Shown here piece by piece: positions 34,836 through 64,000 of a stretch of DNA of 64,000 nt. This DNA comes from an uncultured Bacteroidota bacterium (GTDB lineage: Bacteria; Bacteroidota; Bacteroidia; Flavobacteriales; Flavobacteriaceae): the NCBI GenBank assembly GCA_902631125.1, contig CACOXF010000001.1:53052-117051 (forward strand), given 5' to 3'. Within the stretch, counting starts at the first letter, position 1, and each line of letters opens with the position of its first letter. The translations under genes were made by a program, and so were the position numbers. The notes beneath the pieces are model-generated. The model saw nothing but the letters and a program-made list of their open reading frames with translations, was not told the DNA's origin and did not search any database.

Positions 34836-34843
34836 CATCCGAT

Positions 34844-41852: not shown

Positions 41853-41868
41853 AACTCCTGATTTTAAT

Positions 41869-42049: not shown

Positions 42050-42067
42050 TTTGGTAAATTACTATAT

Positions 42068-44507: not shown

Positions 44508-44581
44508 GGCCTCGTGGCGCAACTGAATAGCGCATCTGATTACGGCTCAGAAGGTTGCAGGTTTGAATCCTGCCGAGGTCA
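44508..44581 (+). tRNA. tRNA-Arg (anticodon ACG)
   Basis: Hand-folded cloverleaf. Acceptor GGCCUCG/CGAGGUC (one G-U pair), D-stem GCGC/GCGC, anticodon stem UCUGA/UCAGA, loop UUACGGC, 5-nt variable loop, T-stem GCAGG/CCUGC. 74 nt; no encoded CCA. Confidence 0.8.
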
Positions 44582-44588
44582 CAGCTTA

Positions 44589-44621
44589 AGAGGGCAAGAA
44601 TTTATCTTGCTCTTTTCTTTT
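44589..44621 (+). terminator. probable terminator after the tRNA
   Basis: Hairpin AGAG(GG)CAAG-aatttat-CTTGCTCT with a 2-nt bulge, followed by a T-rich run. Confidence 0.5.
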
Positions 44622-44709
44622 CTATAAACTTCGATGTAAACTACATTGGTGGTCTTACCGCCTCTTTACGTATTCTAAACACACTATTTTTAGTATACAT
44701 TTTTCCTTT

Positions 44710-44727
44710 AATTAGTACCACTAAAAA
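44710..44727. repeat. right arm of perfect 18-bp inverted repeat (AATTAGTACCACTAAAAA)
   Basis: Exact reverse complement of 44359-44376. A further GTACCACTA half-copy follows at about 44739-44747. Confidence 0.95.
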
Positions 44728-44904
44728 AATATGGAAATGTACCACTATAACCTACTTGAGAGGTTTAGAAATAGCAGAACTTGAGGAAAGTGATATGCTG
44801 ATGATTTTGTAATTTTAAGCAAAACATAATACGATGAAAAAAATCAGTTTACTTTTAACATTAATTGTGGGGATTTGTTTAAACTCATTTTTAATAGTTT
44901 AATG

Positions 44905-46572
44905 CTAGTTGTATCCTTCGTTCTGAACTAATTTAGAGTTTATTTGTAGTTCTGACGTAGGAATTGGCCATCTAATCTCATTAGGATTATATTGTGGCTG
45001 TGGATTACCACTGTTTGACCAAATGGGTTGAGATGAGTTAATTGCCTCATAATAAACCCCATTACGAATAAGATCATTTCTTCTCCACCCTTCAAAACAC
45101 AGTTCTTTTCTCCGTTCGCTTAAGATTTCATCTTTATTGTGTTGTTGAGTCCCAACAACTAAATCTGTTGCTACTCCATTTTTGACTTCACCAGGCCAAA
45201 CACGTGCGCGAGCCCTTAATAAGTTGATAGTCATATCTGCATCAGCCTGTGTGAGTTTGTTTTGACCGTTTAAGGCCTCTGCATACATCAATAAAACATC
45301 AGCATAACGAATATATATTTCATCCACTGGGGTATCACTTCCCCAATCACTTGGACGAATATTATGCCATTTCCATGGCTTCCATGCTCCTTTTCCTAAT
45401 CTCCTTGCTTGACCGTACGTAGTTTGCCCTCTATCTCCAAACATGCCGTCCTCTGGCCAGTTGTTTATCCACTGTGACTGATTAACATTGGATTTTGCTA
45501 TGTTGTTTCTGGATCGAATGTCAAGGTCTTCGTATGGTTGTGCAAAAGCATGATTGTTTCTAGGTAGTCCACCCTTTCCATTAGATGAAGTCCAATTGCC
45601 AGTGTTTCCCGGTCCAGTAACCGGGCCTGCTAACTCCCAATTTACATACCACATATTTCCATTAGCTGAACCATTTGAAACCGATCCTAGCGGGCCATAC
45701 AGCGTACCCACTGCACTTCCTTGACCTATTCCAGGTCCATCAAAGCCAAAAGAAAAAATGATTTCTTCATTTTGCTCATGGTCGACTTTAAAAATATTGG
45801 GATAATAGTCAACTAAATCATAGACTCCGCTATCAATAACTCCTTTTAGTTCAGTTTCAGCTTTTGCAAAATAACTTACATCATTTATTGGGTAACCTGT
45901 CATCTGAAGGTAGATACGACCTAGAACAGCTTGTGCTGCTCCCTTTGTAACACGTCCTCCGCCTTGATTTGCATCTAAATTATCTTTAGCGAAAAGTAAA
46001 TCGTCTTCTATGAATTTATAAACTTCTAAAGGTGTTGACTGCGGGACTTCCAGATTTTCCAAAGAGGTTGTTTCATTTTTTATCAGAGGAATATTCTCCC
46101 ATGAACTAACTAAAGCAAAATTGATAATTGCTCTTAAGAAACGTGCTTGAGCTACAAGCTTATTTTTATCATCAACATCTATTTGATCCTCTGACATACC
46201 ACCTACTCTGTCAATAACGCTGTTGACTTTATTAAGATTGATATACATATTCTCCCAAATATCCCGTATTATGATGTCTGAGGGCGATACAGTATGAAGA
46301 TATATGGGTTTAAACTTACTCCATCCAGGAGATACAATTTCATCAACAGCCATAACACCCCAAATATTTAACCAGCCTGTTTGGAAGTTTGACATCAATG
46401 CGTTCCTTGCTGCATCATATGCACCAACAGTATAAATTTCAGCACCATCCTTGTCAGTTAACAGCAAGGATGGATCTATAATACTTGTTGGACTTTCTTG
46501 TAGAAAGTCTTCTTGGCAACCTAAAAAAAGTAATCCAAGTATAAAATATCTTACTGTTTTAATATTTTTCAT
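44905..46572 (-). CDS. susD: SusD/RagB-family nutrient-binding outer-membrane lipoprotein
   Basis: 555 aa with lipobox ..LLFLGCQ. TPR-like SusD pattern (..RFLRA.., ..YADVLLMYAEALN.., ..ERRKELCFEGWR..). Directly downstream of susC. Confidence 0.9.
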   Translation of the reverse strand: MKNIKTVRYFILGLLFLGCQEDFLQESPTSIIDPSLLLTDKDGAEIYTVGAYDAARNALMSNFQTGWLNIWGVMAVDEIVSPGWSKFKPIYLHTVSPSDIIIRDIWENMYINLNKVNSVIDRVGGMSEDQIDVDDKNKLVAQARFLRAIINFALVSSWENIPLIKNETTSLENLEVPQSTPLEVYKFIEDDLLFAKDNLDANQGGGRVTKGAAQAVLGRIYLQMTGYPINDVSYFAKAETELKGVIDSGVYDLVDYYPNIFKVDHEQNEEIIFSFGFDGPGIGQGSAVGTLYGPLGSVSNGSANGNMWYVNWELAGPVTGPGNTGNWTSSNGKGGLPRNNHAFAQPYEDLDIRSRNNIAKSNVNQSQWINNWPEDGMFGDRGQTTYGQARRLGKGAWKPWKWHNIRPSDWGSDTPVDEIYIRYADVLLMYAEALNGQNKLTQADADMTINLLRARARVWPGEVKNGVATDLVVGTQQHNKDEILSERRKELCFEGWRRNDLIRNGVYYEAINSSQPIWSNSGNPQPQYNPNEIRWPIPTSELQINSKLVQNEGYN

Positions 46573-46590
46573 TTTGTTAAAATTTATAAA

Positions 46591-49500
46591 TTAAAATCGT
46601 GCTACAATTCCTGTTCTAAATGTTCTTGATCTTGGATAAGAGTCAACATCCAAACCAGGTGTTAATTGATTGTTTCCAACACTTACATCTGGATCCCATC
46701 CACTGTATTTAGTCCAAATGTGTAAATTATCCATAGTTGCATAAATACGCAGATTTTTAACCCCAATTTTTCTGATTAAATCATTAGGCAAAGTAAAACC
46801 TAGAGTAATATTTCTAATTCTAAAATAGGAACCATTTTCAAGGTACAGGTCATAAGCTGCTGAATTTACGTCTCCACTATTTCCGGCACTAAATGCAGTG
46901 AAGGTACCGTCAGGGTTTGTTGGAGACCATCTGTCATCAACTATAGAAAACTTATTTCTCCAAGGAACAGCAGTTTGTGCCCCCTTTTTCAAAGTCTTGT
47001 TATAGACATCATTCCCATATGACCAAGATGTTTGAATAGATAAATCAAAATTCTTGAAATTTAAATTTTGTGTCATACCTCCGAAGTGCTTAGGAAAAGT
47101 ATTTCCAATAATATGTCTGTCATCATCATTAATTACGCCATCTCCATTGATATCTTTAAATTTAGTCATCCCGGGACGGTAGGTGCCATTAGTAACAAGC
47201 GCATTTACGGGAACTCCGTCCTTAAGCGTATACTGGTTTAAGCTCCACCACATTTCAGTGCCGTCATCTCCAACTGCTGCTGCATCTGCATATAATTTAG
47301 ATGCTGCTTCATCAATACTCATTCCATCGAATTCGACAAAATCCTGATAGTTGTAAACCCCGTCATAGGCCAATCCGTAGATTGAACCTAATGATTCACC
47401 AACTTTAACTATATAATCGTTATTTGTTAAATTATCACCAATTGCTGTAACGAAAAATTCGTCAGCATCTCCTAGGTCCAATACTTTGTTTTCATTGAAA
47501 CTGATGTTAAAATTCATATTCCAATTAAAATCTCGATTCTCAATCATATTTGCGTTTACAGCAAATTCATATCCTTTGTTGTTTATCAAACCTATGTTTT
47601 TAAATGATGTCTGGTATCCTGATGTTGATGGTAGTGGAACTTCTAAAAGTAAATTAGAAGTTTCCTTATCGTAATAATCTGCTTCAATAGTAGCCCTATT
47701 ATTAAAAAGACCAAGACTAAGACCATAATCAATTTCACGAGTGGTCTCCCACGTAAGTTCTTCATTGGCCAACTGAGTAATTGATGAACCTGTTGTAAGT
47801 GCACTACCACCAAAAACATAGCTAGAGATCCCCGCTTGAGCAATCGATTTGTAGGCAGGAATCTCAGTATTTCCTGACTGACCATAACTGAACTTCAGCT
47901 TAACTTCTGAAATATTATCCTGTATAAAAGACCCAATGGGGTATTTCCAAAATGAACCATTATGACTAGCGAACCATTCTTCATTTGTTAATCTCCAAGC
48001 AAAACCAATTGAGGGAAAATAATCCCAGCGTTTATCTTCAGCAAAACGTGAGGAACCGTCATAGCGTAAACTAGCTGTAAGTAAATATTTATTATATCCA
48101 TCATATTGAATACGACCAATAAATGATTCAACAGATGAATTGAATGCATATGACTGTGTTGGTTCTGTATTGAGAGCACCTTGAAGTGCATCTAGATTTA
48201 AGTCTGGGATATCAAAACCAGTTGAATTTGATCTTAAAGTTTCTGATGTATTTTGTTGTCTCTCATATACAAGCGTTGTATTGATACGGTGGTTACCAAA
48301 ATCTTTTAAATAGCTTAAATTTTGTTCAGTAACTAAACTCCCACTATTATAAAATCTCGTTATTGCTCTACCGCCGACAGCTTTTGACCAACCAAATTTA
48401 TTTGTGTACCAGGCCTTGTTTTTTACTGCCATAGAAAATCCTCTAATTGATGATCTAAAAGTTAAACTCTCGGTTAATTCGTATGTTAGATAGGCATTAA
48501 GGCTTGTTTGTAGTGTTTTTCCAAAGTTAGTATTTTCAGATAATATTAGTTCCGGGTTACTTACATCTCCGTTTCGATTTGCAATTATACGTCCAGTTTC
48601 TGGGTCATATTCATTTTGAAACCATTGCCTTGGTGATTGAACAGGAGAAAAAAGAATAGCACTCGTTACTATCCCCGATCTACCTTGGCTGTTATCCGAA
48701 GCAGCAGTTACAACACCCGACCTAGAAATATGTCCAATATTTCCATTAAAACCTGCTCCTAGTTTATCATCTAATTTAGAACTTATATTGAAATTACCTG
48801 TATACCTTTCAATTCCAGATGTGCGAATTATACCTTCACGATCTTGATACGAAAAAGCTGCATTATAGCGCGTATTTTTATTACCGCCACTCGCATTAAT
48901 TCTGTAGTTTTTTGTAATAGCTTCACGAGTAATGTTTTCTTGCCAATCATCAATTAATATGGGTGGATCAAATTCCATTGTTGCTAAATCAATGGGGATG
49001 TAAGTACCTGTACCATCATCAACCCTCATAGATTCAGCTAAATACTTAATTTGGTTCGTATCATCTGAAACCTCTGAGAACTGGGGAAACCAAGTCTGAT
49101 AATCATTTCGATAATCAATAAACTCTTGTGCCGATAAAATATCAAGTTTTTTTGAAAGTGTTGAAACCCCATAAAATGACTGAAAAGTTATTTGATTTCT
49201 TCCCGGCAACCCTTTTTTAGTTGTTATTAAAATTACTCCGTTAGCTCCTCTAGAACCGTAAATGGCAGTAGCGGATGCATCTTTTAATATGTCAATTGAC
49301 TCAATACTACTAGGATCTATTGTCGCAAGTGGGCTTGTTGAACTATTTCCTTGGCCAACCGAAGTAGAAACGCCAGCACCCGTAATTGGAAAACCATCAA
49401 TTACATATAAAGGGTCATTGCTTGCATTTATTGAAGTACCCCCTCGAATTCTAATTTTGAATGATGCATCAGGTCCTCCTTCAGATTGCACCACTTGCAC

Positions 49501-49962
49501 GCCAGCAGCTTGGGAAGCTATGGCACCTTCAAAACTTGTGGTTTTGATTTTTTCAATTTCATTAGACTTGATTGTTGATACAGCTCCGGTCAAATCTTTT
49601 CGCTTTACAGAACCATAACCAACCACCACAACTTCTTCAAGCTCTGAAATATCAGCAATAAGATTTACACTTAATTGGTTTCGACCCTCGAGCTCAACTT
49701 CTAATGTTTTAAAACCTATATAGCTGAAGACAATTGCATCGTCTTTATTTGCAAAAATTTCGAAATTACCATCAAAATCAGTGACTGAGCCGACTTGTTG
49801 TCCTTTAACTGCCACACTGACACCTGGAAGTAAACTTCCATCTCCTGTGACCGTTCCTTTTACATTCAACTGTTGCCCATACACAAATGTGAATGAACAA
49901 AATAGCACGAGCAAAATTATAAAAGTAGATTTTAGTGTTTTGCTAATTATCAGTCTGATCAT
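46591..49962 (-). CDS. susC: SusC/RagA-family TonB-dependent outer-membrane transporter
   Basis: From ATG 49962. Signal peptide, carboxypeptidase-regulatory-like domain (VKGTVTGDGSLLPGVSVAVKG..), plug (..DPLYVIDGFP..), and a large barrel ending ..RTFRTGIVARF. No N-terminal STN extension. Confidence 0.93.
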   Translation of the reverse strand: MIRLIISKTLKSTFIILLVLFCSFTFVYGQQLNVKGTVTGDGSLLPGVSVAVKGQQVGSVTDFDGNFEIFANKDDAIVFSYIGFKTLEVELEGRNQLSVNLIADISELEEVVVVGYGSVKRKDLTGAVSTIKSNEIEKIKTTSFEGAIASQAAGVQVVQSEGGPDASFKIRIRGGTSINASNDPLYVIDGFPITGAGVSTSVGQGNSSTSPLATIDPSSIESIDILKDASATAIYGSRGANGVILITTKKGLPGRNQITFQSFYGVSTLSKKLDILSAQEFIDYRNDYQTWFPQFSEVSDDTNQIKYLAESMRVDDGTGTYIPIDLATMEFDPPILIDDWQENITREAITKNYRINASGGNKNTRYNAAFSYQDREGIIRTSGIERYTGNFNISSKLDDKLGAGFNGNIGHISRSGVVTAASDNSQGRSGIVTSAILFSPVQSPRQWFQNEYDPETGRIIANRNGDVSNPELILSENTNFGKTLQTSLNAYLTYELTESLTFRSSIRGFSMAVKNKAWYTNKFGWSKAVGGRAITRFYNSGSLVTEQNLSYLKDFGNHRINTTLVYERQQNTSETLRSNSTGFDIPDLNLDALQGALNTEPTQSYAFNSSVESFIGRIQYDGYNKYLLTASLRYDGSSRFAEDKRWDYFPSIGFAWRLTNEEWFASHNGSFWKYPIGSFIQDNISEVKLKFSYGQSGNTEIPAYKSIAQAGISSYVFGGSALTTGSSITQLANEELTWETTREIDYGLSLGLFNNRATIEADYYDKETSNLLLEVPLPSTSGYQTSFKNIGLINNKGYEFAVNANMIENRDFNWNMNFNISFNENKVLDLGDADEFFVTAIGDNLTNNDYIVKVGESLGSIYGLAYDGVYNYQDFVEFDGMSIDEAASKLYADAAAVGDDGTEMWWSLNQYTLKDGVPVNALVTNGTYRPGMTKFKDINGDGVINDDDRHIIGNTFPKHFGGMTQNLNFKNFDLSIQTSWSYGNDVYNKTLKKGAQTAVPWRNKFSIVDDRWSPTNPDGTFTAFSAGNSGDVNSAAYDLYLENGSYFRIRNITLGFTLPNDLIRKIGVKNLRIYATMDNLHIWTKYSGWDPDVSVGNNQLTPGLDVDSYPRSRTFRTGIVARF

Positions 49963-50166
49963 AATTTGAGTTTTCAAAGTTTATTTTTTAAAATATTTTT
50001 AAATTTATTAGTATATCTTAATTTATATTGCCAACCAATTAACAAAATATATTCAAAAATTATCAATTTGTTAAAATAGGCTTGATAACCCCTGTTATTT
50101 AAAAGGTAATTTTAGATATTATTGTTTCAAAAAAAATTAAGTCTTTTGATAAAAATTAGTCAATTT

Positions 50167-53100
50167 ATGATTCTTTATTATTTGAGAGTTACCTACTTTT
50201 TGATTTTTATTCAATCAACCCTACTTTTTGCCCAAACAGATACCATGATAGATAGCATATCACTCAATGGAAAATGGACTATTATTTTTGACCAAGAGAA
50301 CAAAGGGGGTGTTGAAAAATGGTATCTAAAAAAAAATTTTGACAAGCATACAAAACAAATTGAAGTTCAAGTACCGAGTCACTGGGAAAGCATCAAAAAA
50401 GACTATGAAGGCGTGGTCTTTTACAAAAAATCATTTCAATTACCAGAAACTTGGAATGATGGAGTTTTTAGTCTTCATTTTGAAGCAGTCAATTACAAAG
50501 CCGAGATTTGGGTCAATGACCAAGCCGTCGGTACACATGAAGGGGGATTTACTCCTTTTTCCTTTCAGGTCGATGAGGTTCTTAAACCCAGCGTGATAAA
50601 CCATATTATTATAAGGGTTGTCGGTCCGATTCTAATGACTGAACAGCGTATTGATGAAATGGGTCGTATGGAAGTACCCCAATGGAGAGGTGCGATTACA
50701 GGGGGAATTTGGCAAGACGTTTGGATTCAGCGCAGAGGAAATGTTACCATTCATGATGTTTTTTTAAAACCCGATATTGACAAATCGCAAACGGATATTG
50801 ATCTAGAATTATACAATTACAAATCAGCACAACAAAAAACAACTCTTTCAATTAAAGTCAATGATGCAGCCAGTAACACGGTGGGCGTTTTTGAAAAAAA
50901 TATGGACTTGGATCCAGGAATAAATAGCCTCAAAACATCCGTAGATATTCCAAATCAAAAGTTGTGGTCGACAAAAAGTCCACACCTATATTCGATTGAC
51001 ATTTCACTCACAAATGGCAAAGAAACAACGGACAACTGGACACATCGTTTTGGCATGCGAAAATTTACAATCAATAACAATCGATTCTATCTAAACAATG
51101 AACCCCTATATTTAAAAGCAACCTTTTTTGAAGGGCTTTACCCTGTAGGACTTGCTTATCCTGACTCAAAGGAAATGGCGATTAGAGAAATTCAACTTGC
51201 CAAAGATGCGGGATTCAATATGATTAGACCTTGGCGAAAGCCTCCGCCCAAAATGTGGCTTGAACTCTGTGACGAGATGGGTGTTTTAACCGTCGGTAGC
51301 TTAGCAATAGAATGTATGAATAGACCTATCCAATCGGCTTATTTGCCTATGCGGGTAGAGAATGAACTTACACAGAGTATTCTAAGGGATCGAAACCGAA
51401 CAAGCGTAGTGATTTGGGAACTTTTCAATGAGCTTTTACAGCCAGTTATGATTCAAATGCTTCGACCCATGTCACTAAAAGCCCGAGAGCTTGACCCAAC
51501 CAGGCTTATTCTGGACGAATCAGGCGGATGGGCCAAGGGTGCAAGAATGTATTTGCCATACGAAAAAACAGGAAATCAGTTTAATGATATTCATGATTAT
51601 TCAGGTTCCCAAATTACGCAAAGTATTTATGATGGATATGCTAATATTGGTGCTTCAAATGACGAATTGAAAGAGAAAAACCTCTACGGACTAAAAATAC
51701 CAGGGAAAAATGTCGTTCCTGGGCGACTCTCTTTCGTTTCTGAATTGGGTTATGGCAGTTTGCCTAATCTCCCTCAAAACAATGAGGAATTTAGACGAAA
51801 AGGAAATCCCCTAGCACCCACCATGCGCTATCACCTAAGACTAGAAAAAGAACTTGAGCAAATGATGCAAAAAACAGGTTTTGATCGTTTGTTTAAAAAT
51901 TTTGAAGAGTTCTGTTTGGCTCAGCAAACGGCACATGGAATGGCAAACAAAAGATTGCTTGAAGCCACACGCTCCAACCCAAATGTAATCGGGTATTGTG
52001 TTCATGCACTAACAGCGGGAGATTGGATAATGGGTGCAGGTCTGTTGGATTTGTGGCGGAATCCTAAAACAGATGTTTATGAAATGACTAAAGAGGCCAA
52101 CCAAGAGCAAATTGTTACCTTACGGGTAATGCCTAGAAACAGTTACTCTGGAGTTAACCCAAAGGTAGAAGTGATTGGCGTCAACGAAAATATGGAGATG
52201 AAAGTCCAAATTCATTTTCAAGTATATGATGCGTCGGAAAACCTTATTATTGAAAAAGAATTACATAAACCTTTGACCAAAGGCATAACACCTTACCTGA
52301 GTGAAGAAATTAACATGTCTGGATTAACGGGGAGTTTTGAAGCGCGTGTTAAATTAAAAGACAAAAAAGGAAATATTATTGCCAAAAATAGTTTTGATTT
52401 TGACATTTTTGACCCTGTAGTTTTTAATATTGATGCGCCGCTTCGCGTCATAGATCCAAAAGGAGAACTAAAAATATTTCTAACCAAAAAAAATATATCT
52501 TTTGTAGATTTTGAAACTAATGAACATGCTGGGGGATTGATAATCAGTGGTTTGGTGCCACGGACAGAAAAAAAAGTTTTTAACGAGTTGCTCAAAAATG
52601 CTAAAGCTCAAGTTGCTAAAGGAGGAAAGCTAATCATTTTAGATGTACCGGGAAAAACACCGCCCTATTTTGGAAGAAAATTTGAATCTAACAGCGTTGA
52701 GGGCCTGCCTTTTTCTGCTAATTTGTTAAATAAAGGTACCACCCTAGGACTTTGGGCTGGAAAACCTCATATGATCAAGGAACACCCCGTGTTCCAAGGA
52801 CTACCAACGAGTGTAATAATGCAAGAAGTTTATCAAAATGTACATCCAAAAACCACGATGATGATGCAACAAGGCAAAATGATATCGGGCGTGGTAAGCT
52901 ATGACCATTTTAAAAATTTAGATTTGATGCTTCGTCATTATCCGGGTCCCGGTGATATTTGGTTTGGCGCCAATCTTTTAGAAACAGCGTTTGGTGAAGG
53001 GACTATGCTGTTATCAACTTTTGATATTGTTGGAAATCTAGGAAAAGATCCAGTTGCCGAACTTATTTTAAAAAATATGATTAATTACGTAAATAAATAA
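50167..53100 (+). CDS. glycoside hydrolase family 2-like enzyme with a long C-terminal extension
   Basis: From ATG 50167, with a signal peptide. GH2 sugar-binding N-domain (..HFEAVNYKAEIWVNDQAVGTHEGGFTPFSF..). TIM barrel with FNMIRPW, acid/base context VVIWELFNE and nucleophile context SFVSELGYGS. About 350 further residues are of unclear fold. Confidence 0.8.
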   Translation: MILYYLRVTYFLIFIQSTLLFAQTDTMIDSISLNGKWTIIFDQENKGGVEKWYLKKNFDKHTKQIEVQVPSHWESIKKDYEGVVFYKKSFQLPETWNDGVFSLHFEAVNYKAEIWVNDQAVGTHEGGFTPFSFQVDEVLKPSVINHIIIRVVGPILMTEQRIDEMGRMEVPQWRGAITGGIWQDVWIQRRGNVTIHDVFLKPDIDKSQTDIDLELYNYKSAQQKTTLSIKVNDAASNTVGVFEKNMDLDPGINSLKTSVDIPNQKLWSTKSPHLYSIDISLTNGKETTDNWTHRFGMRKFTINNNRFYLNNEPLYLKATFFEGLYPVGLAYPDSKEMAIREIQLAKDAGFNMIRPWRKPPPKMWLELCDEMGVLTVGSLAIECMNRPIQSAYLPMRVENELTQSILRDRNRTSVVIWELFNELLQPVMIQMLRPMSLKARELDPTRLILDESGGWAKGARMYLPYEKTGNQFNDIHDYSGSQITQSIYDGYANIGASNDELKEKNLYGLKIPGKNVVPGRLSFVSELGYGSLPNLPQNNEEFRRKGNPLAPTMRYHLRLEKELEQMMQKTGFDRLFKNFEEFCLAQQTAHGMANKRLLEATRSNPNVIGYCVHALTAGDWIMGAGLLDLWRNPKTDVYEMTKEANQEQIVTLRVMPRNSYSGVNPKVEVIGVNENMEMKVQIHFQVYDASENLIIEKELHKPLTKGITPYLSEEINMSGLTGSFEARVKLKDKKGNIIAKNSFDFDIFDPVVFNIDAPLRVIDPKGELKIFLTKKNISFVDFETNEHAGGLIISGLVPRTEKKVFNELLKNAKAQVAKGGKLIILDVPGKTPPYFGRKFESNSVEGLPFSANLLNKGTTLGLWAGKPHMIKEHPVFQGLPTSVIMQEVYQNVHPKTTMMMQQGKMISGVVSYDHFKNLDLMLRHYPGPGDIWFGANLLETAFGEGTMLLSTFDIVGNLGKDPVAELILKNMINYVNK

Positions 53101-53290
53101 ATGTAAAAAATATTCACTTTTGTGAAATCATGTTAAAGCTTAGCCTCTCCAGGTTTTTTAGGTTTTTCTCGAACAAATTCTTTTGATGTTTTTTATGGCG
53201 TCGGCTAATCCAACGTAGTTTATAACGAAAAATTAAATCATTTAGGAAACAATGTACGTTAGGCCCGAAAGGTCATTCAAGAAGTGAAAA

Positions 53291-54817: not shown

Positions 54818-55001
54818 TATGATGGCATTTTTGATTCTCAAATCTAAAAAACTATTGAAAGTTTAAATGGTATAATATTATCTTAAAACTGTTGATAATT
54901 ATCATTTTTTGATAATTTATATTGACAAAAAGGTAATTGTTATTATTAAAACAACTGATTTATGGTTTAGTTTTAACGATGCAAAAGTGACTTTAAAAAA
55001 T

Positions 55002-56405: not shown

Positions 56406-56865
56406 GCTATCATTGTTTTTTTTACTTCCGAGTGGTTTTGGAAATACTCAAAAATATCAACCGCAGTTTTCTACTGCAGGATTTTACCAAACGAACAAGA
56501 GTGTTCGTGAAGCTATTAATTTTAATGTAGGATGGAGCTTTATAAAGCAAGACGTTACTGGTGCGGAAAAACATGATTTTGATGACAGCGCATGGAGCGT
56601 TCTTAACCTCCCTGATTGCTTGGAACTTTTACCTTTAGCTGCCAAAAGAACTATACATAAAACAGGATTGCAAACTAGAGAAACCAATCATCAAAAAAGC
56701 ATTGCCATTAAAATGAAATCAAACGCCATCTTGAAAATTTTTGTTGCAAATGATTATGGCGACTTGGGCACTGTAGAATATTCGTGTAATTCATCTTTTG
56801 AAGAAGTATTGATTCCTCTCAATAATAGCACCAGTTTGAGCGGTACAACAAAGCTAAAAATTTAA
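56398..56865 (+). pseudogene. remnant of a second GH2 gene (N-terminal about 70 aa retained, core deleted)
   Basis: The 155-aa ORF starts with an ATGA overlap on the esterase stop. Residues ..INFNVGWSFIKQDVTGAEKHDFDDSAWSVLNLP.. match the start of GH2 sugar-binding domains. Similarity then stops, and the ORF is far too short for a GH2. Confidence 0.5.
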
Positions 56866-57033
56866 TTTCGTGACAAGAAAAATGACTTGATTAAAATAGA
56901 TTACGTAAAAAAATTATAAAGACATTGAAGATATGTTAACTAGCACAAAATCATGGGTAATATTTAGCACCTTACTATTCCAGTGTTTTATTTATTTTGA
57001 GCAGTTGAATTGAACCATTCATAAAAAAACTAC

Positions 57034-58632
57034 ATGCTTAGACATATTTTTACTTTTTCACTCATCTCTTTGTCTTTTATAGCCACATCACAAGAACAGC
57101 CAAATGTGTTGTTGATTATGGCAGATGATCTTAACGATTACATTGGTGCTTTTGGTGGGCACCCTGACGTTAAAACACCCAATATGGACCGCTTAGCAGC
57201 ATCGGGTGTACAGTTTTCAAATGCACACACCAACGTACCTGTTTGTCAGCCTTCAAGAAACAGTTTATTTACAGGAGTTTATCCGCACAATTCCGGAGAT
57301 TTTGGCTGGACACCCATGTCAGAACAACCTGTGCTTAAGCACAATAAAACCATGATGGAATATTTTGTTGAAAACGGCTATCAAACCTTAGGTACAGGAA
57401 AATTGACACATGAAGCGCCGCAACAACATTGGCAAGAATGGGGGAATAATCCTAAGCATAATTATGGGCCATTTTATTTTGATGGTGAGGAAATTGGTGT
57501 ATTACCAACCGTACCATATCCCTACCGCCAGATAGGAACTATTGATGGCTCTTACGGACGTATTTCCGAAGGTGGCATCACCAATGGTAAACATGGTGAA
57601 ATCGGTTTGGTTTATGGATGGGACAAAAAGCCGTACAGGTTTCAAGGCAATGATGACAGAGACTTACTTCAAGGAGAATTACATACTCAATGGGCCATTG
57701 AAAAGTTTGAAAAAATTGCACAAAACAAAACAGCAAAGCCATTTTTTATGGGGGTCGGTTTTGTGAGGCCTCATACACCGCTTCATGCTCCCGACGAATA
57801 CTTTGACATGTATCCCATTGATGAAATTGAATTGGATAAATGGATTGACGGTGATGAATTGGACACCTTCTGGAAAGAAAATTTTCAGGGCAACCTATCG
57901 CTTGAAGGTGATATAAAAACAGTTTACGGGTACAGAGGAGGAAATCTTAAAGGTCCATTGTTATTTAAGACATTGGTAGATTCATACGGAGGAGACAGAG
58001 AATTAGCACTTAAATATTTCCTACAAGCCTATTTAGCATGTATCACCTTTGTTGATGATCAGGTTGGGATAATTTTAAACTCTTTAGAATCAACAGGCTT
58101 GAGTAAAAACACAATAGTCATTTTAACCAGTGACCACGGATGGCATTTAGGCGAGAAAAACCATTTATTTAAGAACTCTCCTTGGGAAGAAAGTACACGT
58201 GTTCCGTACATTGTCCGCATTCCTAATAGCGAAGTGAAAGGTGTTGTTAACCACCCGGTGTCACTAATTGATATTTTTCCAACATTAATTGACTATTGTT
58301 CACTTTTGGGTAACACCAAAAAATCAAATTCCGGAGGAAATCTAGGCGGGTACTCTTTACGTGCATTTTTAGAAAATACAAATACAAAAAATTGGAAAGG
58401 GCCTAATTATGCCTTAACAATTGTAGGAAACTATGGGCTGAAATTCCCAAAAGAAAAACAAAACTACTCCTTGCGCACAACAGATTATAGATATATCAGA
58501 TATTATAATGGAAAAGAGGAGTTGTATCACAACAAAAAAGATCCATACGAGTGGCACAATGTGGTCTTTGAAAAAAGATATAGAAAGAAACTTAAAACAT
58601 TTCGTGCGCAACTTAATAACATAGTAAATTAG
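57034..58632 (+). CDS. S1-family sulfatase (Cys-type)
   Basis: Signal peptide. ..LLIMADDLNDY.. and the formylglycine motif VPVCQPSRNSLFTG. Paralogue of 60044..61609. Confidence 0.9.
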   Translation: MLRHIFTFSLISLSFIATSQEQPNVLLIMADDLNDYIGAFGGHPDVKTPNMDRLAASGVQFSNAHTNVPVCQPSRNSLFTGVYPHNSGDFGWTPMSEQPVLKHNKTMMEYFVENGYQTLGTGKLTHEAPQQHWQEWGNNPKHNYGPFYFDGEEIGVLPTVPYPYRQIGTIDGSYGRISEGGITNGKHGEIGLVYGWDKKPYRFQGNDDRDLLQGELHTQWAIEKFEKIAQNKTAKPFFMGVGFVRPHTPLHAPDEYFDMYPIDEIELDKWIDGDELDTFWKENFQGNLSLEGDIKTVYGYRGGNLKGPLLFKTLVDSYGGDRELALKYFLQAYLACITFVDDQVGIILNSLESTGLSKNTIVILTSDHGWHLGEKNHLFKNSPWEESTRVPYIVRIPNSEVKGVVNHPVSLIDIFPTLIDYCSLLGNTKKSNSGGNLGGYSLRAFLENTNTKNWKGPNYALTIVGNYGLKFPKEKQNYSLRTTDYRYIRYYNGKEELYHNKKDPYEWHNVVFEKRYRKKLKTFRAQLNNIVN

Positions 58633-58637
58633 CAATT

Positions 58638-60038
58638 ATGATAAAAGGTGTTTTTATATTTTACGTGTTACTATTTGTTGCACCAATTTTTCTGTGGAGT
58701 CAGTCTAAAAAACCCAATTTAATTGTGATCATGACTGACGATATGGGCTATGCAGATGTTGGGTTTAATGGGTGTACAGATATCCCTACACCCAATATTG
58801 ATTCTATTGCATATAATGGCGCACACATTGTAAATGGTTATGTGTCATTTCCAGTTTGTGGACCTAGTAGAGCAGGTTTTATGACGGGCCGCTATCAAGA
58901 CAGATTTGGCTTTACAACCAACCCGACTATTGATCCGACAAATTATATTGCTGGTCTTCCACTTGATGAAAAAACCCTAGCTGAGGTTTTACACAAAGAA
59001 GGTTATAAAAGTGCTATTGTGGGAAAATGGCATTTGGGTACACATCCAAATTTTCATCCATTAAATAGAGGATTTGATTATTTCTATGGTTTTTTATCTG
59101 GAGGGCATAATTACTTTATAAATCAATTGACTATAGAAAATCTTGAAAATGTTAAATCAAAATGGGCTTGGTATAGAACAAAGCTGATGGAAAATCATAA
59201 AACACTAGAATTTGAGGATTACAAGACCGACTACTTAACAGATGAGCTCAGTGAAGCAGCCCTTCGCTTTATTGACAAACAATCTGAAAATGACCAATCT
59301 TTTTTCTTATTTCTCTCCTATAATGCTCCACATACACCCATGCATGCCACTGAAAAATACCTTTCAAGATTTCCAGAAATACAGGATAGAAAAAGAAAGA
59401 CCTATGCAGCTATGGTAAGTGCTGTTGATGACGGAATAGGACTAGTACTTGAGAAGTTGAAAGAAAATATTCTAATTGAAAATACCATTATTGTGTTTTT
59501 ATCTGATAACGGAGGTGCACATAACAATGCTTCTCAAAACATACCTCTGAGAGGAACTAAAGGAAGTGTTTACGAAGGCGGTCTAAGAGTGCCATTTGCC
59601 ATACAATGGAAAGGAGTGATTCCTGTAAATACAAAGTACGAAGAATCGGTATCTTCATTGGATATTATGGCAAGTATGGTAGACATTTTAGACATTAAAT
59701 CAAATCGGAAAAAACCACTAGATGGAGTAAATATCATTCCTTACCTAACTGGTGAAAAGCAAGGCGCGCCTCATGATTATTTGTTTTGGCGAAAGTGGGA
59801 ACAAAACGCCATGGCAGTAATTCATGGAGATCACAAACTACTCAAATCAAATAAAAGATCAGATTCAGAAATTTATAACTTGAAACTTGATGTTTCTGAG
59901 TCAAAAAACATTAAAGGCTCTAACGTTATTTTGGAAAAACAATTGCAAAATGCGTGGAATCATTGGAATAAAAAAAATATAGACAGAATATTCCCATCAT
60001 TGGGTGAAGACGAATGGTGGACTAAAAATGAAAATTAG
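58638..60038 (+). CDS. S1-family sulfatase (Cys-type)
   Basis: Signal peptide. ..LIVIMTDDMGYADVG.. and the formylglycine motif FPVCGPSRAGFMTG. Confidence 0.9.
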   Translation: MIKGVFIFYVLLFVAPIFLWSQSKKPNLIVIMTDDMGYADVGFNGCTDIPTPNIDSIAYNGAHIVNGYVSFPVCGPSRAGFMTGRYQDRFGFTTNPTIDPTNYIAGLPLDEKTLAEVLHKEGYKSAIVGKWHLGTHPNFHPLNRGFDYFYGFLSGGHNYFINQLTIENLENVKSKWAWYRTKLMENHKTLEFEDYKTDYLTDELSEAALRFIDKQSENDQSFFLFLSYNAPHTPMHATEKYLSRFPEIQDRKRKTYAAMVSAVDDGIGLVLEKLKENILIENTIIVFLSDNGGAHNNASQNIPLRGTKGSVYEGGLRVPFAIQWKGVIPVNTKYEESVSSLDIMASMVDILDIKSNRKKPLDGVNIIPYLTGEKQGAPHDYLFWRKWEQNAMAVIHGDHKLLKSNKRSDSEIYNLKLDVSESKNIKGSNVILEKQLQNAWNHWNKKNIDRIFPSLGEDEWWTKNEN

Positions 60039-60043
60039 ATTGT

Positions 60044-61609
60044 ATGCTAAGGTACGCTTTATTTTCTCTATTTATTTTGACAACATCGCAATTGTTTGCG
60101 CAGGAAAAACCCAATGTTTTGATGATTGTTTTGGATGACCTCAATGATTATGTGGGTGTTTTGGATGGTCATCCACAGGCAAAAACCCCTAACATTGATA
60201 GGCTTGCTAAAGAAGGAGTTTTGTTTACAAACGCACATGCCAATGTCCCAGTATGTCAACCATCCAGAGCAAGTTTTATGACAGGCATTTCTCCATTGCG
60301 TTCTCGAATGTGGGGATTTGATAATTGGATGAAGAACAAATTATTAGCGCAAGCAACTACCCTTCCTGAGTTTTTCACTGCGAAGGGCTATATTAGCATG
60401 CAGTCTGGAAAGGTGTTTCATAGTCCAAAAAAAGGTGCTTGGAGCCTCATGGGGGTTAAAAAAGATTATGGCCCCATAGCATTTAATGGCAAAAAATCAG
60501 TTCCCCACCCCTTATCTCCAAAAGGTATGCGTGAATTAGGAGCTCTTGATGCTACATTTTTCTCTTTGGCAGATGTTCCCGAAGTTCCACCTACTGATGA
60601 TACCCCTGGAGCAAAAGGATGGTATAATGGTAGCTGGGGAGGAAAACCATTTCGCTATGTAAATGATACTGATAGAGATTTAATGACTGATGAGAAAAGT
60701 ACTATTTGGGCAAAAAAACAATTGGAAAAACTAAGCAAACAAGATAAAGTAAAACCATTTTTTATGGCGATTGGTTTGCATAGACCACACACACCCTTAG
60801 TCGTTCCTCAAAAATATTTTGATATGTTTCCATTAAAAATCATTCAAACGTCACAAATAAAAGAGAAAGATTATTCGTATACGTATTTAGAAAACAACAA
60901 CCTTAAGAAAGGTAGAATGTCAAGAGGAAGAAAGGCATATTTAGGTTTAGTTGAAGGTTATGAATCAAAGGAGCTTGCACTTAAAAAATACACACAGGCC
61001 TATTTGGCAAGCGTTGCTTTTGCTGATGATCGTGTAGGAGAGCTGCTTGAAGCATTAGAAAATTCGAAGTTTGCCAACAATACCATTGTTATTCTCTTTA
61101 GTGACCATGGATACAATTTGGGAGAAAAAAAATATCTGTGGAAGTATAATCTGTGGGAAGAAACTACACGTGTACCACTGATTATAAAAGCGCCAAAATA
61201 TAACACAAATGCAGGAAAAAAAATAACCCATCCAGTTTCATTACTAGATATTTATCCTACAATATTATCTCTAACAGGAAATAATGTCTCAAACCTTAAA
61301 CTAAACGGAATACAGCAGTTAGATGGATTCAGCTTAGAACCATTTTTAAAAAATCCTAAAACCAAATTATGGGATGGTCCCGATGCAGCATTAACAGTTA
61401 TTGCAAGTTGGAAGTCTCAACTTCCTGAACGACAACACCTATCAGTAAGAGGAAAAAGATATAGATATATTAAATATGCAAACGGTAATGAAGAGCTATA
61501 TGATCACAAAAAGGACCCTTACGAATCGTATAATCTAGCAAGTAGTATTGAACATAACTATGTCAAACAAAAACTTTCTAGTATCTTGAATAAACAGTTA
61601 AAATTGTAA
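60044..61609 (+). CDS. S1-family sulfatase (Cys-type)
   Basis: Signal peptide. ..VLMIVLDDLNDY.. and the formylglycine motif VPVCQPSRASFMTG. Shares many blocks with 57034..58632. Confidence 0.9.
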   Translation: MLRYALFSLFILTTSQLFAQEKPNVLMIVLDDLNDYVGVLDGHPQAKTPNIDRLAKEGVLFTNAHANVPVCQPSRASFMTGISPLRSRMWGFDNWMKNKLLAQATTLPEFFTAKGYISMQSGKVFHSPKKGAWSLMGVKKDYGPIAFNGKKSVPHPLSPKGMRELGALDATFFSLADVPEVPPTDDTPGAKGWYNGSWGGKPFRYVNDTDRDLMTDEKSTIWAKKQLEKLSKQDKVKPFFMAIGLHRPHTPLVVPQKYFDMFPLKIIQTSQIKEKDYSYTYLENNNLKKGRMSRGRKAYLGLVEGYESKELALKKYTQAYLASVAFADDRVGELLEALENSKFANNTIVILFSDHGYNLGEKKYLWKYNLWEETTRVPLIIKAPKYNTNAGKKITHPVSLLDIYPTILSLTGNNVSNLKLNGIQQLDGFSLEPFLKNPKTKLWDGPDAALTVIASWKSQLPERQHLSVRGKRYRYIKYANGNEELYDHKKDPYESYNLASSIEHNYVKQKLSSILNKQLKL

Positions 61610-61691
61610 TATAGTTTATACTTTATATGTTTTTTAACATTGTCAAATTCAGTGCGCTCAAAAAAGACTAATTTTCCAACAAACGTCACTA

Positions 61692-62828
61692 ATGACCATA
61701 AACACAAACAATTCTGACATCATTGTAAAATCCCCTGGTCGCATCAATCTGATTGGCGAACACATTGATTACAACGGCGGGCATGTACTGCCGGCAGCGA
61801 TAGATCGTAAAGTCACCATGTGGTTTAGAAAAAAGGACAACAGCCTATGTCGGGTAAATTCTGAAGATGAGGGCGCCTTTTCTTTTGATATCAACAAGCC
61901 CTTACAAATCAGCGATACCCATTGGGAGAATTATGTGCTTGGTGTTGTCGATGGCATTGTAAAAGCCTGTCCAGGAAAGCTCGGAGGTTTTGATTGTGTG
62001 ATATCCAGTGAGTTGCCTATTGGGGCTGGTATCAGCTCATCTGCCGCCCTTGAATGTGGTGTTGCCAAAGGCTTAAATGATTTATTTGACTTGGGGCTTT
62101 CCAATTTGGAGCTTATAGAGATCTCTCGCATGGCAGAGCACAACTTTGTGGGTACCAAATGTGGGGTGATGGATCAGTTTGCGGTGACGATGGGCAAACG
62201 TAAAAAGCTGTTACTTCTAAACTGCGAGACCTTAGACTACAAACTCATTGATGCAGAGTTTACTCCTTATAAGATATTGCTACTGAACACCAATATATCG
62301 CATAACTTGGCATCGAGTGAGTACAACACGCGAAGAGACGAATGCGAACAAGCCCTTGCTCTCATTCAAAAAGACCATCCTCAGTATGATTTTTTAGCCG
62401 ATGTTCCAGAAATAATCATCCAGACTTATAAAGAAAAACTCTCTAAAAAAGTCTATCAACGGGCACTTTTTGTGTCTCGTGAAAACGCCAGAACCTTAAA
62501 AGCTGCAGAGCTTATCCAAAGCGGAGATATTAAGGGTTTTGGCAAGCTGATGTACCAAACCCACGAAGGGCTATCCAAAAACTATGAAGTCAGTTGCCCT
62601 GAACTCGATTTTTTAGTGGACCTTTCCAAAGACTTCCCGCAGGTGGTGGGAAGTCGTATGATGGGTGGCGGCTTTGGCGGTTGCACAATCAACCTTCTGG
62701 AAGAGGGCTTTGTCAATGAGTTTATGGATTTGGCAAGCAAAGTCTACAAACAAAATTTTGATATTAATCTCACTTCCATATTGGTAGCTACCTCAAATGG
62801 CGTGGAAACCATAAATTCTGAATTATAG
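61692..62828 (+). CDS. galK: galactokinase
   Basis: Signature GRINLIGEHIDYNGG and the GHMP motif ..PIGAGISSSAALE... Confidence 0.95.
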   Translation: MTINTNNSDIIVKSPGRINLIGEHIDYNGGHVLPAAIDRKVTMWFRKKDNSLCRVNSEDEGAFSFDINKPLQISDTHWENYVLGVVDGIVKACPGKLGGFDCVISSELPIGAGISSSAALECGVAKGLNDLFDLGLSNLELIEISRMAEHNFVGTKCGVMDQFAVTMGKRKKLLLLNCETLDYKLIDAEFTPYKILLLNTNISHNLASSEYNTRRDECEQALALIQKDHPQYDFLADVPEIIIQTYKEKLSKKVYQRALFVSRENARTLKAAELIQSGDIKGFGKLMYQTHEGLSKNYEVSCPELDFLVDLSKDFPQVVGSRMMGGGFGGCTINLLEEGFVNEFMDLASKVYKQNFDINLTSILVATSNGVETINSEL

Positions 62829-63866
62829 ATGGATTTTAACAACACCCAACACAGAAGAAAAAACATCCTCACAGGCGAATGGGTACTGGTATCTCCACAC
62901 CGCACTAAACGCCCATGGCAAGGCAAAAAAGACAAGCCCCAGGAAGTAGAGCTATTAGATTACGATCCGAACTGCTATTTATGCCCAGGCAATGAGCGCG
63001 CAGGAGGCGCCAAAAACCCAGACTATACATGCACATACAGCTTCCAAAACGATTTTGCAGCCCTGCTTAAAGGCCCAGAAGAAACTTTTAAAGAGGGGCT
63101 ACTAGAAGCCGAAAGCGAATCCGGAAAATGTAAAGTGATTTGCTATCACCCCAATCACAGTTTGACACTGCCACTAATGGAAGAGCGTGATATAGAGGAA
63201 GTGATCACACTTTGGCAAAAGGAATACACTGACCTTGGGAGTGATCTAAACATCAACCATGTGCAGATTTTTGAGAACAAAGGAGCAATAATGGGCTGCT
63301 CCAACCCGCACCCACATGGACAGATATGGGCACAACGCACCATTCCTCAGGAAGTGCAGAAAAAAGTGGTGCACCTAAAAAGCTATTGGGACCAAAACAG
63401 CAGCAGTTTATTGGGCGATTATTTACAACAAGAACTTGATGCCAAAGAGCGCATTGTATTGGAAAACGAAAGCTTTTTAGCACTTGTTCCCTATTGGGCA
63501 GTATGGCCATTTGAGACCATGATTATACCCAAAAGACATATTACCTCTATTCTAGAACTATCACTGCAAGAAGTATCGGATTATGCAGGTATCCTAAAAG
63601 CCCTCACTATTCGCTATGACAACCTTTTTGAAACCTCATTTCCCTACTCTGCAGGAATACACCAAGCGCCCACAGATGGAAAGGATAACAGCCACTGGCA
63701 TATGCATATGTCGTTTTATCCACCCTTACTTCGCTCAGCCGAGGTCAAGAAATTTTTGGTGGGCTACGAGATGTTTGCCAGTCCCCAGCGTGACATCACG
63801 GCTGAGCAAGCCGCACAACGCTTACGTGATTGTGCAACCAAACACTATTCAAAAAACAAAACATAA
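62829..63866 (+). CDS. galT: galactose-1-phosphate uridylyltransferase
   Basis: Zinc site CYLCPGNE and active-site HPHGQIW. The start abuts the galK stop. Confidence 0.95.
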   Translation: MDFNNTQHRRKNILTGEWVLVSPHRTKRPWQGKKDKPQEVELLDYDPNCYLCPGNERAGGAKNPDYTCTYSFQNDFAALLKGPEETFKEGLLEAESESGKCKVICYHPNHSLTLPLMEERDIEEVITLWQKEYTDLGSDLNINHVQIFENKGAIMGCSNPHPHGQIWAQRTIPQEVQKKVVHLKSYWDQNSSSLLGDYLQQELDAKERIVLENESFLALVPYWAVWPFETMIIPKRHITSILELSLQEVSDYAGILKALTIRYDNLFETSFPYSAGIHQAPTDGKDNSHWHMHMSFYPPLLRSAEVKKFLVGYEMFASPQRDITAEQAAQRLRDCATKHYSKNKT

Positions 63867-63891
63867 ACAAAACCATTAAAAACAAAGCCAA

Positions 63892-64000
63892 ATGAATTTT
63901 TCAACAATAGACATAGCTGTATTTGCGCTTTATGCGCTGATCATTTTATCAATCGGATTTTTTGTATCCCGTCAAAAGAAGGGTGAGACCAAAAGTGCGG
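63892..64000 (+). CDS. sodium:solute symporter (SSS family), 5' fragment cut by the window edge
   Basis: Hand translation MNFSTIDIAVFALYALIILSIGFFVSRQKKGETKSA matches the usual SSS N-terminus (TM1, then a basic stretch). Only 36 codons are visible. Confidence 0.65.
   Translation, partial: MNFSTIDIAVFALYALIILSIGFFVSRQKKGETKSA

Follow-up and report, generated by a model that had tools for sequence, protein, structure and literature searches.

The right-hand part of a 64,000-nucleotide stretch of DNA from an uncultured Bacteroidota bacterium (contig CACOXF010000001.1; the whole stretch is called the window here) carries, from position 44905 onwards, what is rather probably the left-hand two-thirds of a polysaccharide utilisation locus (PUL) of an uncultured pelagic Flavobacteriaceae lineage. 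It would represent a reduced member of a PUL family conserved across marine Flavobacteriia, with a sulfated, acetylated, galactose-containing algal glycan as its probable target. The family is common in uncultured ocean Flavobacteriaceae and is without biochemical characterisation: no characterised PUL of matching composition (S1_15/S1_19/GH16; GH2/GH78/GH16_3; galactokinase) was found in the published literature, and no matching locus in the NS5, Polaribacter, North Sea PUL, Maribacter arabinogalactan and 2026 PUL-screening literature. An earlier note on this DNA had considered the architecture unusual on account of its four sulfatases to one glycoside hydrolase (GH) and its lack of an endo-acting enzyme, a regulator and a sulfatase-maturing enzyme. 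This is not supported: a recent deletion and the end of the window explain most of it, and the architecture is ordinary once both are allowed for; regulators, a GH16 and a LacZ-type GH2 are found in relatives.

The genes named in the earlier note are all in place, with strong hidden Markov model support, and the locus reads as follows.

44508 to 44582, plus strand: tRNA-Arg (ACG), from ARAGORN and Rfam (59.6 bits), the left boundary of the locus.
44905 to 46572, minus strand: SusD-like glycan-binding lipoprotein, 555 aa (Pfam SusD_RagB 1e-31, SusD-like_3; lipobox LGC).
46591 to 49977, minus strand: SusC-like TonB-dependent transporter (TIGR04056 at 821 bits, cut-off 368; probable start 49962).
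50167 to 53100, plus strand: GH2a, 977 aa from the ATG at 50167 (open reading frame (ORF) 50122-53100), secreted, with Pfam GH2 N, Ig and TIM domains.
53291 to 54841, minus strand: SulfA, S1_15 sulfatase, a lipoprotein (CTPSR; probable start 54817).
54909 to 56405, plus strand: CE20-type (SASA) de-O-acetylase (Pfam SASA 2e-21; probable start 55002, 467 aa).
56398 to 56865, plus strand: orf155, a deletion scar made of the GH2b N-terminus and the sulfE tail, with a premature stop.
57034 to 58632, plus strand: SulfB, Cys-type S1 sulfatase (Pfam Sulfatase 2e-52; CQPSR).
58638 to 60038, plus strand: SulfC, S1_19 sulfatase (CGPSR at C74; PDB matches).
60044 to 61609, plus strand: SulfD, Cys-type S1 sulfatase (CQPSR; PDB matches).
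61692 to 62828, plus strand: galK, galactokinase (Pfam GalKase_gal_bdg, GHMP kinase N and C; dN/dS 0.07).
62829 to 63866, plus strand: galT, galactose-1-phosphate uridylyltransferase (Pfam GalP_UDP_transf 4e-62, GalP_UDP_tr_C 2e-63).
63893 to 64000, plus strand: 5′ end (36 codons) of a sodium:solute symporter gene (SSS), 78% identical to the N-terminus of the 562-aa SSS of the relative L017.

The susC and susD genes, 18 nt apart on the minus strand, diverge from the 977-aa GH2 gene as had been read from the ORF map, and the ATG at 50167 is the start in all relatives. The motifs of the four Cys-type sulfatases are likewise exact. The first of these genes, SulfA, lies on the minus strand and is convergent with GH2a, which gives an order different from the one proposed: GH2a, SulfA (minus), esterase, remnant, SulfB, SulfC, SulfD. 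Signal peptides are present on the sulfatases and the esterase, and lipoboxes on SulfA and SusD. The placement of galK, galT and SSS directly downstream is borne out by Pfam and by similarity to the L017 symporter, which matches TIGR00813 at 365 bits. On the left, homology to PUL-bearing relatives begins at 44865, and a tRNA-Arg identical to that of the window adjoins SusD in L010.

The identity of the region as a PUL is clear from its composition, since susC, identified by TIGR04056, adjoins susD, and a GH2, a CE20-type esterase and four S1 sulfatases lie inside 12 kb. More than 10 related contigs show the same enzyme set in synteny. The relatives retrieved by the GH2a protein are single amplified genomes (SAGs) and metagenome-assembled genomes (MAGs) of uncultured marine Flavobacteriaceae, at 86-93% identity; L-numbers denote the contigs or stretches of relatives compared with the window, L017 having been found via a metagenome scan with GalT. 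SusD is 94% identical to that of L001. All intact genes are under strong purifying selection, with dN/dS values of 0.07-0.16 (0.07 for SusD, 0.11 for SusC and 0.14 for GH2a), which indicates retained function; the reading of a decaying, non-functional locus is rejected on this ground.

The deletion lies downstream of the esterase. In L001, L002, L006 and L008 the esterase gene is followed by a second GH2 gene (GH2b, 896 aa), a lipoprotein GH16 (302 aa, with the ExDxxE motif), sulfF (516 aa) and sulfE (621 aa). In the window this place is taken by orf155, the 5′ part of which corresponds to GH2b codons 1 to ~82-84 and is 83% identical to the L001 GH2b N-terminus. By blastn, window positions 55053-56644 match L001 14926-16517, and positions 56644-57200 match L017 3821-4377, that is, the last 276 nt of sulfE and the sequence following it. 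A three-way alignment of the junction places the switch at ~56644, within a few bases. Thus, orf155 is an in-frame chimera of GH2b and the last ~125 codons of sulfE, with a premature stop, and a single deletion of ~6.4 kb removed the rest of GH2b, the GH16, sulfF and most of sulfE. The earlier reading of a decayed second GH2 was correct in that a GH2 remnant is present; slow decay is rejected, as the breakpoint at ~56644 marks a chimeric deletion scar. Constraint on orf155 is relaxed (dN/dS 0.27 and 0.51, from small samples).

Related deletions of the same stretch are found in other genomes. In L017 the SASA gene is followed by sulfE, with GH2b, GH16 and sulfF missing, while in L011 the end of GH2a is joined straight to the region before SulfB (junction at window positions 53216|56841). 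L101 contains only GH2a and three sulfatases, lacks SusC/D, and occupies the same chromosomal site, beside glutamine synthetase and a Na/Ca exchanger. In addition, the sulfatase gene between GH2b and GH16 in L004 (20322-21781) is split into two ORFs of 235 and 250 aa. The GH2a-SulfB stretch is therefore being eroded in this lineage. Two side observations concern these contigs: the SSS gene of L104 (12904-14592) is split into 379 and 166 aa, and L006 (NZLM01000039.1), labelled 'Methanobacteriota archaeon isolate IN35', carries a flavobacterial GH2a-SulfA-SASA-GH2b-GH16 block 93-98% identical to SAGs and is almost certainly mis-binned.

The second part of the explanation is found beyond the right edge, where the content of the window's own genome was deduced from relatives at ~86% nucleotide identity. 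L017 is collinear with window positions 56644-64000 at 86% nucleotide identity. In all four contigs that contain SulfB-C-D (L017, L093, L103 and L106), these genes are followed by galK, galT and SSS and then, on the opposite strand, by a second GH16 (GH16′, a 314-aa lipoprotein, 40% identical to the L001 GH16), a 635-aa beta-helix protein with a type IX secretion system (T9SS) tail, and a LacZ-type GH2 of 1055 aa. The last passes its NCBIfam equivalog cut-off (1032 versus 999); SulfD of L093 is 72% identical to that of the window. Since four out of four such contigs have this right-hand block, we infer from synteny that the window's own genome very likely retains it too. The stretches of L103 and L106, the only two that reach past the LacZ-type GH2 to AraC, continue with two small secreted proteins, a Dabb protein, MR_MLE, Aldedh, an HpcH aldolase, a RhaT-like DMT symporter and an AraC regulator, ~14 kb past galT. 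In NCBIfam searches MR_MLE, Aldedh and RhaT all fall below curated cut-offs; MR_MLE scores best with acid-sugar dehydratases, none of them above the cut-off.

The missing endo-enzyme and the 4:1 ratio of sulfatases to GH are thus accounted for by the ~6.4-kb deletion and by the end of the window before GH16′, the beta-helix protein and the LacZ-type GH2. The absences themselves had been correctly noted: when all ORFs of the window from 100-120 aa upwards were scanned with Pfam, no endo-GH or polysaccharide lyase, no HTCS, SusR, ECF, LacI or AraC regulator and no formylglycine-generating enzyme (FGE) or anSME was detected, and SusC shows only Plug and CarbopepD_reg_2, without an STN domain. The sole regulator in the window is a sigma-54 response regulator (25365-26600), 18 kb off. 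A linked regulator is common in PULs, not obligatory. Regulators are normal for this family, given the HTCS, GntR/LacI-type and AraC regulators of relatives. As for sulfatase maturation, L016 carries an FGE (12136-13080; PF03781, 8e-72) directly after galK-galT-galM, downstream of a different SusC/D, which fits the Cys-type sulfatases; this suggests that, in this lineage, sulfated-glycan loci generally gather around galK. The earlier note had itself allowed that endo-enzymes and a regulator just outside the window might make this an ordinary fragment of a known PUL type; they are indeed present in relatives, while no characterised PUL was found to match.

The substrate is addressed first by the sulfatases. 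SulfA is assigned to S1_15 by its formylglycine (FGly) motif, CTPSR at C82, and by its closest similarity to S1_15 members. Its best PDB matches are 7OZC (4.6e-196) and 6S20 (4e-160), and S1_15A/B of the lambda-carrageenan cascade are also matched; the top eight matches span 4.6e-196 to 1.6e-136, the next drop to 5e-47, and 7OZC, 6S20, 7OZE, 9BAS and 9BAU among these eight are S1_15 by name or cited paper. Bacteroides S1_15 enzymes are exo-Gal/GalNAc-6-sulfatases (bioRxiv 10.1101/2021.07.23.453482), and those of the lambda-carrageenan cascade are exo-Gal-6-sulfatases (PMC12549532). Galactose recognition in this subfamily depends on a triad formed by the Asp-Arg of a FIMAATGDRVP motif plus a His (bioRxiv 10.1101/2021.07.23.453482). 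SulfA keeps YIMAATQDRVP with D171/R172, and an HHGH stretch (219-222) lies ~50 residues on, as in BT1624 (D170/R171/H220). SulfA is therefore a probable exo Gal/GalNAc-6-O-sulfatase. Its orthologues occupy the same position in Urechidicola and Lutimonas (66-68% identity). SulfC is classed by similarity as S1_19, in the clade of carrageenan Gal-4-O-sulfatases, its matches being 6BIA (7e-98), 6B0J (1e-95), 6PRM (2e-95) and 9HH3, named 'family S1-19' (1e-94), with the next subfamily at 1e-61. SulfB and SulfD are paralogues (41% identity). The best PDB matches of SulfB are weak (1e-42; 7OZ8, 6HHM), and SulfD is nearest to iduronate-2-sulfatase/S1_7 at 1e-41; the best values of the pair, 1e-41 to 1e-42, are spread over 7OZ8, 6HHM, 5G2V and human IDS, with no clear preference for S1_7. 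Orthologues of SulfB are present in Urechidicola (60%) and Lutimonas (56%). The SulfD family is widespread in marine sulfated-glycan degraders, and in two more distant loci SulfD homologues of 57-59% identity are directly followed by an AraC-RhaT-Aldedh-MR_MLE module.

The esterase had been recognised as SASA-type from its GQSNM block, which is found at residue 139. Its SGNH core and similarity to CE20 structures (9H4U, 3e-79; 7KMM, 5e-72) mark it as CE20-type. The window enzyme lacks the beta-sandwich ancillary domain inserted in other members: its alignment to 9H4U/9EGA falls into two stretches that leave out roughly residues 210-405 of the target (~200 residues), and its length is 467-498 aa versus ~640 for full-length CE20. 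This domain is found in only some CE20 members (PMC12313940). Full-length CE20 proteins with the ancillary domain are encoded in the more distant locus versions L009 and L098. The characterised enzymes Fl8CE20_II (9H4U) and XacXaeA (7KMM; PMC12313940) share the SGNH core and the GQSNM block with the window esterase, but have the additional domain, and their substrates are xylan or xyloglucan rather than sulfated glycans.

GH2a belongs to family GH2 and is a predicted exo-glycosidase and the signature of this PUL family. Its catalytic pair is intact, with Asn421-Glu422 and Glu526 (in SELGYG) invariant in 36 homologues. The best PDB matches are 7XYR, 7SF2 and 5T98, at ~1e-45. In the AlphaFold2 model (mean confidence, pLDDT, 82.5) all top fold matches are GH2 proteins, the best being an uncharacterised Phocaeicola plebeius GH2 (8U01; TM 0.64/0.68) and BuGH2A of B. 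uniformis (5T98/5T99; E 1e-40), which was crystallised with galactoisofagomine. Unlike the situation of those two enzymes, no agarase or porphyranase (GH16_12/16, GH86, GH50, GH117) accompanies GH2a, and its identity to them is 16-19%. As a side observation, residues ~480-977 of GH2a (~500 aa; window 51600-53100) are conserved in the family and confidently modelled, and have no PDB sequence match; the model predicts beta-sandwich domains and a Rossmann-like alpha/beta domain in this C-terminal half.

The beta-helix protein is a candidate uncharacterised glycan-active family. Its N-terminus matches a GH136 lacto-N-biosidase at 1e-16, over ~80 residues only; its AlphaFold2 model has a pLDDT of 37.7, all homologues in the alignment being at least 89% identical. 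Apart from a weak Por_Secre_tail, the 635-aa T9SS-tailed protein (L103:10001-11908; homologue at L017:13753-15660) matches no Pfam family. It is annotated as 'hypothetical' and occurs in 183 blocks of the assembly collection. Polaribacter L098 has two tandem paralogues, and L009 and L012 contain two copies as well.

A connection with galactose catabolism is suggested by the arrangement of galK-galT-SSS. The gap between SulfD and galK is 82 nt and contains no terminator-like hairpin, and in L093 the end of the SulfD gene overlaps with the start of galK. An alignment of the sequences upstream of galK revealed no conserved promoter block, galK always lying close behind the upstream gene. The sulfatase genes and galK-galT-SSS probably share a transcript. 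In the PUL-bearing contigs L017, L093, L103 and L106, galK-galT-SSS is flanked on both sides by PUL genes, including the LacZ-type beta-galactosidase of the conserved block. In Lutimonas saemankumensis the association recurs in another arrangement: GH2a (48% identical) diverges from the gene of a GntR/LacI-type regulator, behind which lie galK, galT, SSS and galM, with SulfA, SulfB and SulfC orthologues downstream. Of the Leloir module, galK and galT are present and galE and galM lie outside the window; galM stands beside galK/galT in L016, L018 and Lutimonas. A functional tie of galK-galT-SSS to the PUL is likely, and a tie to galactose is favoured because SulfA keeps the Asp-Arg pair and SulfC is an S1_19 enzyme.

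The glycan is most probably a sulfated, acetylated, galactose-containing algal heteroglycan, and we infer the following order of action. In full versions of the locus, the lipoprotein GH16 enzymes would cut the sulfated, O-acetylated polymer at the cell surface, perhaps helped by the T9SS-secreted beta-helix protein. SusD would bind the resulting oligosaccharides and SusC would import them. In the periplasm, the CE20 esterase would strip acetyl groups, SulfA would take galactose 6-sulfate and SulfC galactose 4-sulfate, and SulfB and SulfD would remove sulfate at other positions, while GH2a and the LacZ-type GH2 predicted past the window would trim the residues exposed. SSS would then take up galactose, with GalK and GalT feeding it into the Leloir pathway. 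Maturation of the Cys-type sulfatases would fall to an FGE whose gene lies in another part of the genome.

Several observations weigh against a galactose-centred substrate. The triad His of SulfA is placed by position only, and the galactose triad is absent from ~70% of the marine S1_15 sequences (bioRxiv 10.1101/2021.07.23.453482). GH2a reaches no NCBIfam equivalog cut-off, and its nearest solved sequences are a mixture of an uncharacterised GH2_19 protein, beta-glucuronidases and BuGH2A, not clearly beta-galactosidases; GH2_19 is a furanosidase group (PMC12243196). Both GH16 paralogues are distantly laminarinase (GH16_3)-like (1e-18 to 1e-24), nearer to these enzymes than to any known galactanase. 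Relatives with 87-92% identical GalT have other neighbours upstream of galK, namely SSF (L014, L019), DUF4861 with galM (L015, L018), another SusC/D (L016) and GH97 (L104, L105), so that the adjacency may be partly positional. The GH2a gene of other genera shows translational coupling to a GH78 rhamnosidase-like gene, a pairing seen in four other lineages, and it sometimes stands before PfkB or PfkB plus KDPG aldolase, or after GntP; this speaks for rhamnose or a sugar acid in place of galactose or in addition to it. Of the earlier proposal of a sulfated galactose-containing glycan, the assignment to a sulfated-glycan PUL and the likely galactose tie stand; labelling GH2a a beta-galactosidase is not straightforward.

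The varied neighbours of galK and the pairing of GH2a with GH78, PfkB, KDPG aldolase or GntP, together with the RhaT/MR_MLE/HpcH/Aldedh module downstream in relatives, raise the alternative that galK-galT-SSS is a housekeeping operon at a rearrangement-prone site where glycan loci come and go, and that the key sugars of the glycan are not galactose, as in a sulfated rhamnose/uronic-acid polymer. Such a coincidence of position seems unlikely in view of the PUL genes on both sides of the operon, the SulfD-galK overlap, the repeated association in Lutimonas, the Asp-Arg pair kept in SulfA and the LacZ-type enzyme of the conserved block.

Less probable still is a carrageenan-family (red-algal galactan) system akin to the carrageenan regulon of Zobellia galactanivorans (ZGAL_3145-3159; PMC5698469), in which S1_19 and S1_7-like sulfatases would desulfate oligosaccharides and an Aldedh/MR_MLE/DMT-symporter/AraC module would handle 3,6-anhydro-D-galactose. 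The resemblance is considerable: both systems combine S1_19 and S1_7-neighbourhood S1 sulfatases with GH2 beta-galactosidases in more than one transcription unit, SulfC matches the carrageenan S1_19 sulfatases at ~1e-96, and the nearest neighbours of SulfB/SulfD include S1_7 members. In relatives, moreover, AraC stands beside a DMT-type sugar/H+ symporter, an aldehyde dehydrogenase and an enolase-superfamily enzyme, ordered like ZGAL_3155-3159. S1_15 also serves galactose 6-sulfate in lambda-carrageenan, where the cascade of Pseudoalteromonas distincta U2A (PMC12549532) combines S1_15 exo-galactose-6-sulfatases with exo-beta-galactosidase(s) and yields free galactose. However, the enzymes diagnostic of these systems are missing. 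Pfam detected no GH16_17, GH82 or GH127/GH129, as in kappa/iota-carrageenan PULs, and no GH150, GH167 or GH110 in the window or close relatives; nor do the window or relatives contain the GH16_12/16, GH86/GH50 or GH117 of agar/porphyran PULs. The GH16 paralogues have no kappa-carrageenase match at E<=1e-3, MR_MLE leans towards acid-sugar dehydratases, the place expected for DauC/DauD is taken by an HpcH aldolase, and the hosts are pelagic SAGs and MAGs. Further differences from the Zobellia regulon are the SusC/D pair inside the locus, the S1_15 and CE20 enzymes, the large GH2a and the Leloir link. Unlike U2A, a gammaproteobacterium, the host is a member of the Bacteroidota with SusC/D, and no GH150, GH110 or clear S1_8 is present; SulfA is also nearer to Bacteroides S1_15 (1e-196) than to U2A S1_15A/B (1e-144, 1e-137).

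An animal-glycan scavenger, using a Gal-6-sulfatase, GH16_3, GH136-like beta-helix, beta-galactosidases and a sialate-O-acetylesterase-type esterase on mucin- or keratan-sulfate-like sulfated poly-N-acetyllactosamine from zooplankton, fish or gelatinous material, is very improbable: SulfA does have a Bacteroides host-glycan S1_15 sulfatase as its closest solved homologue, the GH16s weakly match the O-glycanase 6T2N, the beta-helix N-terminus matches GH136 and the esterase falls in the SASA/sialate O-acetylesterase superfamily, but no GH20, GH33, GH29/95, GH84/89, S1_11 or S1_20-like partner was detected in any locus version, the GH136 match covers ~80 N-terminal residues only, and characterised CE20 enzymes act on xylan and xyloglucan (PMC12313940). 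The comparison with B. thetaiotaomicron is instructive for SulfA. The S1_15 enzymes of this species (BT1624, BT4631, BT3333; 7OZC/7OZE/6S20) are its closest solved homologues and have the FGly motif as well as the Asp-Arg pair of the triad in common with it, and the laminarinase-like GH16 of relatives recalls the GH16_3 O-glycanases of B. thetaiotaomicron. In contrast, the FGly residue of SulfA derives from Cys and not from Ser, so that an aerobic FGE is implied, and hexosaminidase, sialidase, fucosidase, S1_11 and S1_20 partners are absent.

Returning to the sulfated, acetylated, galactose-containing algal glycan, the wider PUL family gives some indication of what else it may contain. GH2a homologues, 46-53% identical over their full length, are widespread in marine Bacteroidota, and Polaribacter, Urechidicola and Lutimonas have between them orthologues of SusCD, GH2a, SulfA/B/C, GH16′, the beta-helix protein and CE20. 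Polaribacter combines SusD, SusC, GH2a, GH78, GH16′, two beta-helix genes and a full-length CE20; Urechidicola has GntP, GH2a, GH78, SulfA (minus), SulfB and HTCS; and the Lutimonas locus also contains PfkB and GH78. In L102 the order is HTCS, sulfatase, GH2a, GH78, sulfatase, aldolase, MR_MLE, SSF and GH127. The recurrence of GH78, PfkB/KDPG-aldolase and RhaT/HpcH suggests rhamnose and/or an acidic sugar, besides galactose, among the constituents of the natural substrate, and GntP beside GH2a together with PfkB/aldolase hints that GH2a or a partner releases a sugar acid. PfkB lies directly after GH2a in L007 (12932-14691) and L100 (12948-13994), and L007 also has a KDPG/KHG aldolase. As a tentative extension, possible rather than probable, the family might target an undescribed sulfated, acetylated, galactose-rich phytoplankton glycan, possibly of rhamnogalactan type, with GH2a and the beta-helix protein representing new specificities or families; the graded deletion series would then reflect an ongoing loss of polymer-attacking genes in part of the pelagic populations, in which only the oligosaccharide-scavenging part is kept.

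Much of marine organic carbon consists of sulfated algal glycans, a fraction that is poorly resolved, and the substrate is known for few pelagic PULs. The clusters of GH2a and SulfD have hundreds of members in ocean metagenomes, which makes this family a reasonable target for substrate discovery. In addition, the nested deletions among near-identical genomes indicate how streamlined planktonic bacteria drop the endo-acting, public-good part of a PUL and keep transport, desulfation and catabolism. It also follows that absences of endo-enzymes, regulators and FGE judged in one window are weak evidence of novelty; the interest of this locus lies in how abundant its family is in ocean metagenomes and in the clear erosion series that it forms with close relatives.

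Some observations concern the surroundings of the locus. The other sizeable ORFs of the window have housekeeping functions only according to Pfam, including AmtB, two glutamine synthetases, SecA, DnaJ/GrpE and RecQ. A nitrogen-assimilation cluster (33539-43075) lies beside the PUL, with AmtB at 33539-34759 and a type III glutamine synthetase (39666-41792, minus strand) divergent from a short glutamine synthetase-like gene (42047-43075, plus strand). A scan for sigma-70 promoters and terminators between 44 and 64 kb, which is uninformative for Bacteroidota, gave 51 promoter-like sites versus 68 expected and 16 terminator-like sites versus 15.6 from shuffles, and Rfam found the tRNA-Arg alone. 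This tRNA gene is bracketed by two nested imperfect inverted repeats (44329-44385 / 44701-44856; 27 nt at 89% and 35 nt at 74% complementarity) and followed directly on its 3′ side by a strong hairpin (44588-44616); these repeats and the hairpin, at the left junction of the PUL, could be a small mobile or recombination element.

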